Shown here one piece after another: positions 2,604 to 4,545 of a stretch of 5,181 nt of DNA; position 1 is the stretch's first letter; each line of letters opens with the position of its first letter. Under the pieces are notes generated by a model, which was not told the DNA's origin, searched no databases, and saw only the letters and a list, made by a program, of their open reading frames with translations. Origin of the DNA: a virus (taxonomy: Duplodnaviria > Heunggongvirae > Uroviricota > Caudoviricetes); the IMG/VR virus record IMGVR_UViG_2778261227_000008, one strand, 5' to 3'. A program made the translations under genes and the position numbers.

Positions 2604-2756
2604 ATGGATACTATCGATCTTGGCAACAGCGAATCTCTGGTATGTGGCGTGTTTCCCAACCAGGACGGTACGTTCACCGCGATGACGTATACCAAAAGCA
2701 AAACGTTTAAAACCGAAGCTGGCGCGCGTCGCTGGTTATCCAGAAATACTGACTGA
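2604..2756 (+). CDS. Small YdaF/YdfA-like prophage protein, 50 aa
   Basis: ATG at 2604 with GAGG at 2594-2597, in frame within track ORF 2520..2756. Product MDTIDLGNSESLVCGVFPNQDGTFTAMTYTKSKTFKTEAGARRWLSRNTD resembles the ~51-aa Rac YdaF / Qin YdfA proteins as I remember them. First gene after the PL-like promoter. Confidence 0.55.
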   Translation: MDTIDLGNSESLVCGVFPNQDGTFTAMTYTKSKTFKTEAGARRWLSRNTD

Positions 2757-3142
2757 TGAGATTAACGATGGAATTTAAAGATTTACCAACACCTTTCCAG
2801 GAAATGGCAGCGAATATAGTTCGTTCTCAATTGGCGACTCTTGACCTGAGTACCGTAGAAAAAGAAACCATAGATAATATATCCGGTAACGTGCGCCGTG
2901 CCTTTATCGGGTTGTACGAAGAGAAGCAGCACTCTGATAAGCATGATTCCTCTGAAAAATACTTCCTGGAATTAATGGATATCATTAACAAGGGGTTTGG
3001 TTTGTTGATGGAAAAGAAAGGGATTCGAATAGAACCCCTTAAAAACCATTTTACTGAGTGCAACATTAATTCCTGTGATTTAAAGCATCCCACTTCAGAT
3101 GGGAAAGTTGAAGCCAACTATAAAATATCAATTAATCATTAA
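2756..3142 (+). CDS. Hypothetical protein, 128 aa (124 aa if started at ATG 2768); no domain recognised; apparently AT-rich
   Basis: Track ORF 2756..3142. The ATG at 2756 overlaps the upstream stop (TGATG). Base composition looks clearly more AT-rich than flanking genes by eye (not computed). No motif I can assign. Confidence 0.5.
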   Translation: MRLTMEFKDLPTPFQEMAANIVRSQLATLDLSTVEKETIDNISGNVRRAFIGLYEEKQHSDKHDSSEKYFLELMDIINKGFGLLMEKKGIRIEPLKNHFTECNINSCDLKHPTSDGKVEANYKISINH

Positions 3143-3198
3143 GTTCTCCACGGGTGAGGTGGAGAACATGCGCCGGACACGGATAAATCTCCGGCATG
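3143..3198. terminator. Two hairpins between convergent genes; candidate bidirectional terminators
   Basis: Hairpin 1: GTTCTCCAC 3143-3151, 7-nt loop, GTGGAGAAC 3159-3167 (perfect 9-bp stem). Hairpin 2: CATGCGCCGGA 3167-3177 pairs with TCCGGCATG 3190-3198 with one bulge, followed by CTCTTT. No strong U-tract on either strand. Confidence 0.4.
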
Positions 3199-3220: not shown

Positions 3221-3667
3221 CTAACCACAAAGAAATCGCATCAATTTAGATTTTGTGGGCAGCTTCTCTTGTTGTTCGATGGAAACGCCTATTTTGATCT
3301 GTGTTTTTAAGATCGCAATATCTTTAAGTGATGACCAAATATGATCATCCGTTTTTTCCAGAATTTTTAACTGCATTTTCAATTCAGAATCAGAATATTT
3401 TTCTGCATCATCAAAAAGCTGCAAATATTCTGCGGATTTTCTCATGGCGTTACCTGACTTTTGTCCGAATCCATAAATCGTTTGGACGGTTGCGATCACA
3501 ACAATAAAAACGCCAGAAATTTCCGGAATGAATCCGCCAATGACAGATGAACCGAGGATAATACTCACCACTGAGAGAAGTTTATCGAGACGACCAGTCG
3601 CTACAGAAAATAGTTGCTCAAGAAAATAGCCATATAAAATTCTGTCAAGAATATCATCCCGGTCCAT
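3221..3667 (-). CDS. Small two-transmembrane membrane protein, 148 aa; SieB-like (superinfection exclusion) by position, or a SLATT-like 2-TM effector
   Basis: Track ORF; ATG at 3667 with AGGTGA upstream. Two hydrophobic helices (LLSVVSIILGSSVIGGFI and ISGVFIVVIATVQTIYGF) followed by a charged helical tail. Orientation opposite to the PL-like operon and adjacent to a ydaF-like gene, as sieB is in Rac. Functional name is inference. Confidence 0.55.
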   Translation of the reverse strand: MDRDDILDRILYGYFLEQLFSVATGRLDKLLSVVSIILGSSVIGGFIPEISGVFIVVIATVQTIYGFGQKSGNAMRKSAEYLQLFDDAEKYSDSELKMQLKILEKTDDHIWSSLKDIAILKTQIKIGVSIEQQEKLPTKSKLMRFLCG

Positions 3668-3673
3668 ACATCA

Positions 3674-3820
3674 TCACCTGCTTGTTTGGTTGTTGCTGTT
3701 CCCCCTCTCCTCCGAAGGAGCTGGAGATGGTTTTGGTCGAATGTTTTTCTCTGGTATGTGATCCCAGACTGTTTTATGTGTCGAATTGCCACCACCTGCT
3801 TGTGCTCTTTGCTCTGTCAT
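3674..3820 (-). CDS. Possible small ORF, 48 aa, immediately upstream of the two-TM gene; uncertain
   Basis: Internal ATG of track ORF 3674..3937, with AAGGA 6 nt upstream. Its stop TGA is 7 nt before the two-TM gene ATG. Product MTEQRAQAGGGNSTHKTVWDHIPEKNIRPKPSPAPSEERGNSNNQTSR is hydrophilic and low-complexity. A plus-strand ORF at 3727..3882 with SD AAGGAG competes for the same DNA. Confidence 0.25.
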   Translation of the reverse strand: MTEQRAQAGGGNSTHKTVWDHIPEKNIRPKPSPAPSEERGNSNNQTSR

Positions 3821-4119
3821 ATGATTTCCTTGGATCGTTGGGGATATCCAGATTATACAGATTTCTTGTCGTTGGGGAATGACAGGAACCACCTCGCCTG
3901 ACGTGGTTAAAAGCAGGCACACAACACGAAAGCGCACGGCGAAGTCATTTCTCCCTCTGTTGCGTGTCGCCGGTATCTTCGACCGTGCGCTTCCGGTTGT
4001 GGCACTCCGCGAAATGGCGCGGCGGTAAGTATGGCGGGGTTATCCTTACCCCCACTGGTAGCACCGGGTTGTCAGGTTGACCATACGCCTGAGTGACAAC
4101 CCCGCTACAACACTCCATG

Positions 4120-4176
4120 TTGATTTGTACCTTTGGCGGCATCAGTTTCATTGCTGGCTGATGTCCCCCCTTTTTA
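4120..4176 (+). ncRNA. dicF: DicF-like small RNA with terminator-like 3' hairpin and U-tract
   Basis: Sits directly upstream of dicB as in the Qin dicB operon. Segment TTTGGCGGCATCAGTTT matches my recollection of E. coli K-12 DicF (TTTGGCGGTATCAGTTT). Stem CATCAG/CTGATG extended by G-C pairs and followed by CCCCCCTTTTT (4165-4175). 5' boundary is estimated; the 5' portion differs from K-12 as I recall it. Confidence 0.5.
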
Positions 4177-4178
4177 AA

Positions 4179-4340
4179 GTGAATTTTGTGATGCGGTGAA
4201 TGCGGCTGAGCGCACGCGGAACAGTTAAAAAGCGATTAGTTCCCCCGTATCGGGTGTTTATGGGTTTCCCTGTATCCGGCGTTAATTGTTAACTGGTTAA
4301 CGTCACCTGGAGGCACCAGGCACCGCATCACAAAATTCAT
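4179..4340 (+). other. 20-bp long-range inverted repeat bracketing the dicB leader
   Basis: GTGAATTTTGTGATGCGGTG at 4179-4198 is the reverse complement of caccgcatcacaaaattcat at 4321-4340 (19 of 20, the last pair G-U in RNA). The 3' arm ends 4 nt before the dicB SD (GAGGA 4345-4349). Confidence 0.6.
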
Positions 4341-4356
4341 TGTTGAGGACGCGATA

Positions 4357-4545
4357 ATGGAAACGTTATTACCAAACGTTAATACGTCTGAAGGTTGTTT
4401 TGAAATTGGTGTCAGAATCAGTAACCCTGTATTTACTGAAGATGCCATTAATAAGAGAAAACACGAACGGGAGTTATTAAATCAAATTTGCATTCTTTCT
4501 ATGCTGGCCCGTTTACGTCCGACTCAAAAAGGATACTGGCAATGA
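4357..4545 (+). CDS. dicB: DicB cell-division inhibitor, 62 aa
   Basis: Hand translation gives METLLPNVNTSEGCFEIGVRISNPVFTEDAINKRKHERELLNQICILSMLARLRPTQKGYWQ, recognised as DicB. SD GAGGA 7 nt upstream. Confidence 0.9.
   Translation: METLLPNVNTSEGCFEIGVRISNPVFTEDAINKRKHERELLNQICILSMLARLRPTQKGYWQ

Follow-up and report, generated by a model that had tools for sequence, protein, structure and literature searches.

The window, by which we mean the whole stretch of 5,181 nucleotides that was analysed, corresponds to the early-left region of an E. coli lambdoid prophage of the Qin/DicB type. Its plus strand carries a DUF1391 (ydfA-like) gene (2520-2756), a gene for a 128-aa protein (2756-3142), a DicF-like RNA (4122-4170, with a terminator hairpin at 4138-4165), an STnc100-like match (4168-4389) and dicB (4357-4545), into the start of which the STnc100-like match extends. 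The two RNA matches are divergent copies, both falling under the Rfam gathering score in a scan at E <= 1 (30.3 bits against 48 for the DicF-like RNA, 37 bits against 47 for the STnc100-like match). Between these plus-strand early genes, and on the minus strand, lie the gene for a two-TM (2TM) protein of 148 aa (3221-3667, phrog_6315) and a region with a small open reading frame (ORF), of which the 2TM gene is the downstream partner. The small ORF and the 2TM gene thus form a pair placed antisense inside a dicBF-type early operon, at a site of variable cargo. A scan of 3668-3925 against Rfam at E <= 1 gave no match.

In E. coli, 751 bases of this locus are found at 99 % identity or more in 16 complete genomes, and some allele of it, at a coverage of at least 80 %, is present in 72 of 5426 genomes. 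An inverted repeat at 3142-3166, read from the sequence as GTTCTCCAC-N7-GTGGAGAAC, separates the convergent plus-strand gene, which ends at 3142, from the cassette, which ends at 3221. This repeat may be a two-way terminator; its T-run is weak, and a terminator scan did not call it. The same E. coli site holds other minus-strand cargo genes. In two loci the interval between ydfB/C and dicF carries different cargo on that strand (at 1411-1786 in L058 and 1446-1766 in L059), in one an 86-aa remnant of a coiled-coil/zinc-ribbon-like protein and in the other a 106-aa multi-TM protein, which marks the site as a cargo hotspot within the dicBF operon.

Three further features of the window deserve mention in their own right. 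A 68-aa hypothetical protein annotated by PGAP on the minus strand at 3945-4151 (WP_157898028.1 in NZ_AP024126) is antisense to the DicF-like RNA and to the conserved region upstream of it, and is probably a spurious call. Two clusters of CGTGACA / GTCGTGAC heptamers (95-150 and 369-430), 220 nt apart on either side of 150-369, look like iteron or operator arrays. Finally, two adjacent small plus-strand genes are inserted between the gene for DUF1391 and one that is repressor-like; judged from the ORF list alone, the first (1845-2035) resembles a ParD/RelB-type antitoxin and the second (2038-2315) a ParE/RelE-type toxin.

Two overlapping reading frames on opposite strands

The original prediction described an antisense pair of small ORFs, both with good ribosome-binding sites, and both are present. 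The minus-strand ORF (3674-3820; ATG at 3820, TGA at 3674) encodes a proline-rich product of 48 aa, MTEQRAQAGGGNSTHKTVWDHIPEKNIRPKPSPAPSEERGNSNNQTSR, with the core motif DHIPEKNIRPKPSPAP, and its Shine-Dalgarno (SD) sequence AAGGA (3827-3831) precedes the ATG by 6 nt. The stop of this ORF likewise precedes the ATG of the 2TM gene (3667) by 6 nt and is overlapped by AGGTGA (minus strand, 3674-3679), which we read from the sequence as the ribosome-binding site of that gene. The plus-strand ORF (3727-3882) encodes a hydrophobic product of 51 aa with three Cys and has AAGGAG at 3715-3720, again 6 nt before its ATG. Counting AGA, AGG, CGA, CGG, ATA, CTA, CCC, GGA and GGG as rare, the minus ORF has 6 rare codons among its 48 and the plus ORF 8 among its 51; many rare codons had been noted for both. 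The window has 28 ATG-initiated ORFs of 45 aa or more, and a 5-mer SD core lies upstream of only 4 of them; the two members of the antisense pair are among the four, so the observation is not a trivial one. Open frames opposite a real gene are common, and comparative data are needed to tell the two ORFs apart.

Neither ORF is annotated in the seven E. coli records inspected for PGAP annotation, and the exact sequences of both are absent from a collection of about 15 billion predicted proteins in which the neighbouring 2TM protein is seen on about 1000 contigs. The 48-aa peptide has no match at E <= 1 in Pfam-A, NCBIfam, PHROGs or PADLOC.

Comparison across relatives makes it very probable that the minus ORF is a real protein-coding gene. 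A small ORF on the same strand is found directly upstream of every 2TM homologue recovered, including those of Salmonella and of metagenomic contigs, whether the 2TM proteins are 59-68 % identical (L008-L012), 43 % identical (L076) or about 30 % identical (L081, L094, L131 and L144, with 25-30 % as the lowest). At 34 % identity and below (L200, L201) the small ORF is present and called by gene callers, and in two GenBank entries, Providencia phage PSTNGR2lys and phage EKP1, both it and the 2TM gene are annotated as hypothetical proteins. It is intact in 11 of 11 divergent cassettes, and also in L081, L094, L131, L144, L200, L201, L202 and L203. An AAGG or AAGGA core falls within the 13 nt that precede the start in all 17 unique versions. 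With the single exception of L201, the small ORF of the relatives ends 4-18 nt before the 2TM start, which bears out the proposed coupling of the minus ORF to the 2TM gene.

The products of these ORFs are 26-52 aa long and have in common the motif H-[IVML]-P-x3-4-[RK]-x-P-x-P-P, which takes such forms in relatives as EHIPEKNVRPTPPPP, DHMPSRLIKTPPPPPP, RHVPLRQKPPVPPKPP, FHVPVNQRPAPIPEPKP and NHLNPKPIRPTPPPP; the N- and C-terminal thirds of the peptide are poorly conserved. In the subfamily with a 148-aa 2TM protein the core reads H-[IML]-P-E-K-[NDG]-[IV]-R and is written in alternative synonymous codons (CAC/CAT, CCA/CCT/CCG, GAG/GAA and AAA/AAG, with Arg as CGA, AGA, CGT or AGG). The indels of this subfamily measure 12, 9, 6 or 3 nt, all of them multiples of three. 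E. coli has a second allele, which shares about 92 % identity over the cassette and is very different in the 5′ half of the minus ORF. It has 12 additional nt inside that ORF and 2 nt upstream of its ATG, and the minus ORF is still in frame, at 52 aa. A search of 5.8 billion proteins with a profile of the peptide returned seven clusters, and a 148-aa gene follows in all four that were looked up; a scan of species-representative genomes with the peptide profile gave no relative.

Substitution patterns distinguish the frames. Summed Nei-Gojobori counts give a pN/pS of 0.36 over eight moderately diverged pairs, and 0.49 over 45 pairs, when the minus ORF is read in the sense direction. The corresponding values for the frame of the plus ORF are 1.37 and 1.47, and over the eight pairs the second antisense frame gives 0.99 and the wobble-mirror antisense frame, which is closed by stops, 0.43. 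Constraint at the protein level acts on the central motif of the small gene, and the two genes of the pair have diverged together. The small gene, which annotation leaves out of every E. coli record inspected, defines a family of small proteins with at least 15 sequence types.

That neither ORF is coding, and that 3668-3900 is instead a promoter followed by a long untranslated leader of the 2TM gene, is very unlikely in view of these comparisons. Both ORFs are indeed skipped by gene callers and PGAP, a conserved regulatory module extends from 3821 upward, and the loss of 118 bp is tolerated (both described below), all of which speaks for such a leader. Against it, the frame, the SD-preceded start and the motif are kept although synonymous sites are saturated among relatives (pS 0.66), Arg is retained through switches between CGN and AGR codons, and the subfamily indels are all multiples of three.

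On the same comparisons the plus ORF does not code for protein and is a mere shadow of the small gene and its leader. Its frame is interrupted by stops in 5 of 11 relatives (L052, L054, L008, L009 and L076), among them the closest Salmonella relative of the window allele (L052). In the second E. coli allele its C-terminus falls in another frame, and relatives outside E. coli have neither its start nor its SD. The AAGGAG itself is no more than the complement of the minus-strand codons CT-CCT-TC, which encode a conserved Ala-Pro-Ser. A real or second overlapping gene on the plus strand, translated from the dicBF-operon transcript, could draw on this strong AAGGAG 6 nt before the ATG, on a frame that is open in both E. 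coli alleles and on its position on the sense strand of the early operon. The pN/pS of 1.37-1.47, the in-frame stops, the change of frame, the missing start and SD outside E. coli and an SD that merely complements conserved Pro/Ser codons nevertheless make such a gene extremely improbable; Pfam, NCBIfam and PHROG searches found no family match for the plus ORF, and its sequence is missing from the protein collection.

It is thus frame conservation, synonymous codon use, pN/pS, the stops and the origin of the AAGGAG in Ala-Pro-Ser codons that lead us to take the minus ORF as the gene and the plus ORF as its shadow. The expectation that at most one of the two would be real holds, and examining the conservation of each frame, as had been proposed, separates a minus frame that is kept from a plus frame with stops and a frame switch. 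The prediction had left undecided which of the two is real, and it did not anticipate that the real one would found a conserved protein family without annotation. More generally, the Pro/Ser codons of a real gene can by themselves give its antisense strand a strong ribosome-binding site.

A portable module upstream of the small gene

As an alternative, the region had been suspected of being the promoter and leader of the 2TM gene, and 3821-3918 is in fact a conserved regulatory and leader module. Read along the minus strand, it consists of a 30-nt element, a repeat (R1), TATAAT, a second repeat (R2) and the SD, after which the small gene begins. The 30-nt element (3889-3918) is invariant, GCCTGCTTTTAACCACGTCAGGCGAGGTGG, with a stem AACCAC/GTGGTT; across module copies it is seen as GCCTGCTTTTANCCACNTCAGGCGAGGTGG. 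The direct repeat TCCCCAACGA occurs as R1 (3869-3878), in the -35 region, and, 34 nt from it, as R2 (3835-3844), between the -10-like hexamer TATAAT (3852-3857) and the SD. A hexamer of the form TAnnnT stands at the -10-like place in all type-A modules examined. The -35 is poor, and for this reason a simple promoter scan finds no complete sigma-70 match. TATAAT may be the -10 hexamer of a promoter for the small gene.

Conservation of the module far exceeds that of the coding sequence. Its copies include those of the window, L077-L079, L080-L199 and L200-L202; the 30-nt element is present in more than 120 viral contigs and 29 GenBank phages, and the module also stands beside other cargo of the E. 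coli site. At least 18 first ORFs that are unrelated to one another come after it, and their start codons all stand at nearly the same distance, 96-103 nt. The repeats, 10-14 nt long and 33-35 nt apart, lie on either side of the -10-like hexamer, and R1 and R2 change in concert between phages (TCCCCAACAAC, TTCCACAGTCAA, TACCCCTACAG, CCCCAATGTAAT and ACCACAACATTAA). Two compensatory variants of the element stem were read directly from the sequences; MAFFT columns are unsuited to counting stem pairs, as the 3′ arm is shifted by one column in two variants. Neither the mRNA nor the 30-nt element folds with a better energy than its shuffles.

A second type of module, type B, accounts for 23 of 81 unique sequences (among them L054, L059, L085, L089, L091, L117, L139 and L140). 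It has no repeats. TATCC and a covarying hairpin follow right after the 30-nt element, the 3′ arm of the hairpin is the SD sequence, and the ATG of the cargo comes about 40 nt after the element. With the repeats replaced by an SD-pairing hairpin, transcription of type-B modules would start in or upstream of the element, and the pairing implies a ribosome-binding site sequestered in the hairpin.

Loss of the small gene occurs naturally. Two 11-bp direct repeats, CACCTGCTTGT (3675-3685 and 3793-3803), bound a recurrent 118-bp deletion that removes most of it (alleles L004, L020-22, L028-29, L051 and H51-H54). The 148-aa 2TM gene is intact in six of the seven deletion loci. In the deletion allele a fusion ORF of 33 aa runs over the 2TM start, and 2TM expression may therefore well be altered. 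Since the peptide is lost and the 2TM gene intact in six loci, the peptide is not an indispensable antitoxin, which speaks against a type II toxin-antitoxin pair with the peptide as antitoxin.

The 2TM protein and the role of the pair

The 2TM family comprises 143 clusters at 50 % identity, and its proteins are similar in size, mostly of about 145-180 aa. The AF2 model of the 2TM protein is all-helical with a pLDDT of 94.7. Some UniRef entries name it "SLATT domain-containing protein". The Pfam SLATT model matches none of 62 family members, the PADLOC RTasSLATT profile matches three to four members weakly (E = 2e-3 to 3e-4), and matches to 2TM-effector profiles are also weak; beyond these weak effector-profile signals, the known PADLOC defence models match neither the peptide nor the 2TM family. 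A fold search of BFVD returned SLATT-named proteins of giant viruses as 8 of the 12 top matches, with probabilities of 0.97-1.0, but E about 1e-2 and TM 0.47-0.58, and sequence and fold searches of the PDB gave nothing significant for the 2TM protein. We speak of the protein as "SLATT-like" because there is no Pfam SLATT match, the PADLOC matches are weak and the others are at fold level: these signals suggest a remote likeness and not a demonstrated SLATT member.

The 2TM loci inspected are flanked only by genes of the phage early region and by the small ORF, with no SMODS, SLOG, RT, nucleotide cyclase or other nucleotide-signalling gene beside them. The Pfam SieB profile matches neither the 2TM protein nor its family, so that position and orientation alone are analogous. 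With the 2TM profile, a scan of species-representative genomes gave no relative, and scans of metagenome and IMG/VR sequences gave relatives at 91 % identity or more only. Fusions of peptide and 2TM protein were sought among N-terminally extended members of the 2TM family, and none was found. Some loci carry tandem second cassettes (at about 2890-3464 in L056, and downstream of the first 2TM gene in L094 and L131), in which a second proline-rich small ORF, for example MLINQFGDFPRPMPDGQVPYRPSPHQPPSPPPQPKP or ...IPIIPNHVPPKPRPPSPK, comes after the first 2TM gene; in L056 this second ORF precedes another gene of the 2TM family, for a protein of 155 aa.

The product of the small gene is hydrophilic, charged and proline-rich, and it is predicted to be disordered. 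Its AlphaFold prediction has a pTM of 0.18, no helix of four or more residues and no strand, and the confidence peaks at residues 21-40, which are the motif.

The pair forms a two-gene operon, in which the minus ORF, very probably translated, comes first, and we lean, with somewhat better than even confidence, towards a peptide that partners or modulates the SLATT-like 2TM effector. The pair would be an accessory ('moron') cassette that is expressed in the lysogen and serves superinfection exclusion or abortive infection. Through the motif H-x-P...[RK]-x-P-x-P-P, the disordered peptide would act at the protein level on the 2TM effector, which it would partner or modulate; the spacing of 4-18 nt, found in all relatives but one, would let the two be made together; and on induction, convergent transcription of the early operon would silence the cassette. 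Promoter use, a defence role and a direct interaction of peptide and 2TM protein are what we infer for the pair. The analogy of rexAB, sieB and bstA, all found at an equivalent hotspot, suggests expression in the lysogen. A cI repressor lies 0.3-2 kb from the module or the cassette in L077, L078, L201 and L202, and the L201 cassette adjoins both bstA and cI. The interval between cI and N is described as a mosaic hotspot that holds rexAB and bstA (PMC8585504).

The main rival, which we regard as possible and distinctly less probable, is that the small ORF is a translated regulatory leader or arrest peptide that tunes 2TM synthesis. Slowing of the ribosome in the H-x-P...R-P-x-P-P tract, or a dependence there on EF-P or proline supply, would then set the yield of 2TM protein. 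Salmonella mgtCBR has a proline-rich leader, mgtP, and arrest peptides of the SecM/ApdA type end in R-A-G-P or R-A-P-P. At 26-52 aa the ORF is very short, its product is predicted to be disordered, the SD of the 2TM gene lies at or beside the small-ORF stop with a spacing of 4-18 nt, most versions contain runs of 3-8 consecutive prolines, and the deletion allele is tolerated, all of which would suit a leader, as would the spacer of about 100 nt in L201, which has two inverted repeats and is attenuator-like. The window allele and several others, however, have no adjacent prolines (PKPSPAP, PAPIPEPKP, PKPQPKPQPKP), so that EF-P-type stalling is not universal, and the conservation of His and of hydrophobic and basic residues suggests specific recognition. 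Between the motif and the 2TM start lies a variable distance, 64 to 99 nt as calculated from peptide lengths and gaps, and the peptide has no N-terminal targeting signal of the kind found in force-sensing arrest peptides. Nor is the mRNA unusually structured: over 3640-3842 of the minus strand (z = -0.87) we found no conserved structure that would link the small ORF to the 2TM ribosome-binding site or a terminator, and spacers of 4-18 nt leave no room for one, L201 being the exception.

A more adventurous proposal would turn the proline-rich ORF into a sensor of the state of translation, with a ribosome pause in its H-x-P...R-P-x-P-P tract gating the synthesis of a pore-forming SLATT-like effector. 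We consider this unlikely, and equally unlikely its corollary that disturbance of translation, of EF-P or of proline-tRNA supply by a phage would trigger collapse of the membrane. If true, such a sensor would mean that abortive infection can be triggered by a new logic, and that this logic travels on a portable promoter module with paired repeats that co-vary from phage to phage. Returning to the partner reading, the pair offers a direct test case in which a disordered proline-rich peptide as protein partner can be set against the same peptide as translational sensor.

Several known systems bear on how the pair is to be read. Like the leaders mgtP, SecM and ApdA/ApdP, which the present ORF recalls, it has a short upstream ORF with a basic and Pro motif and a downstream gene for a membrane protein; it differs from them in that there is no conserved regulatory RNA structure, the peptide has no signal or TM segment, and adjacent prolines are missing in several alleles. 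With AcrZ, MgtS, KdpF and MgrB the window peptide shares a length below 50 aa, being routinely missed by annotation and being encoded beside, or acting on, a membrane protein. Those are single-pass hydrophobic proteins, whereas the present peptide is hydrophilic, charged, proline-rich and predicted extended.

SLATT (SMODS and SLOG-associating 2TM) effectors of CBASS-like, DRT and related conflict systems have a two-TM helical hairpin with cytoplasmic helices, as is predicted for the 2TM protein here; the present pair differs in its small peptide partner and in having no cyclase, SLOG or reverse transcriptase nearby. RexA/RexB of lambda, SieB of P22 and lambda, and BstA are, like the pair, temperate-phage accessory genes in a variable interval by the repressor and early-left operon, for which expression in the lysogen is presumed. 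RexB and SieB are small membrane proteins, as is found in the present pair, and sieB is antisense to the pL operon, as the present cassette is to its early operon. The pair has no sequence similarity to RexAB, SieB or BstA, and PADLOC gave no Rex or BstA match; its partner is a proline-rich peptide of 26-52 aa, whereas RexA is a sensor protein. We found no description in the literature of the peptide, of the peptide-2TM pair or of the module.

What emerges is a family of small proteins that has kept its link to a single family of membrane proteins in E. coli, in Salmonella and as far as Providencia-type phages. Placed at a site known for exclusion and abortive-infection genes and matching no catalogued defence system, the pair is a candidate for a new two-component membrane-acting system. 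As a prophage accessory cassette with a small membrane effector it is of a known kind; what is new is the proline-rich partner family and the strict linkage of the two.
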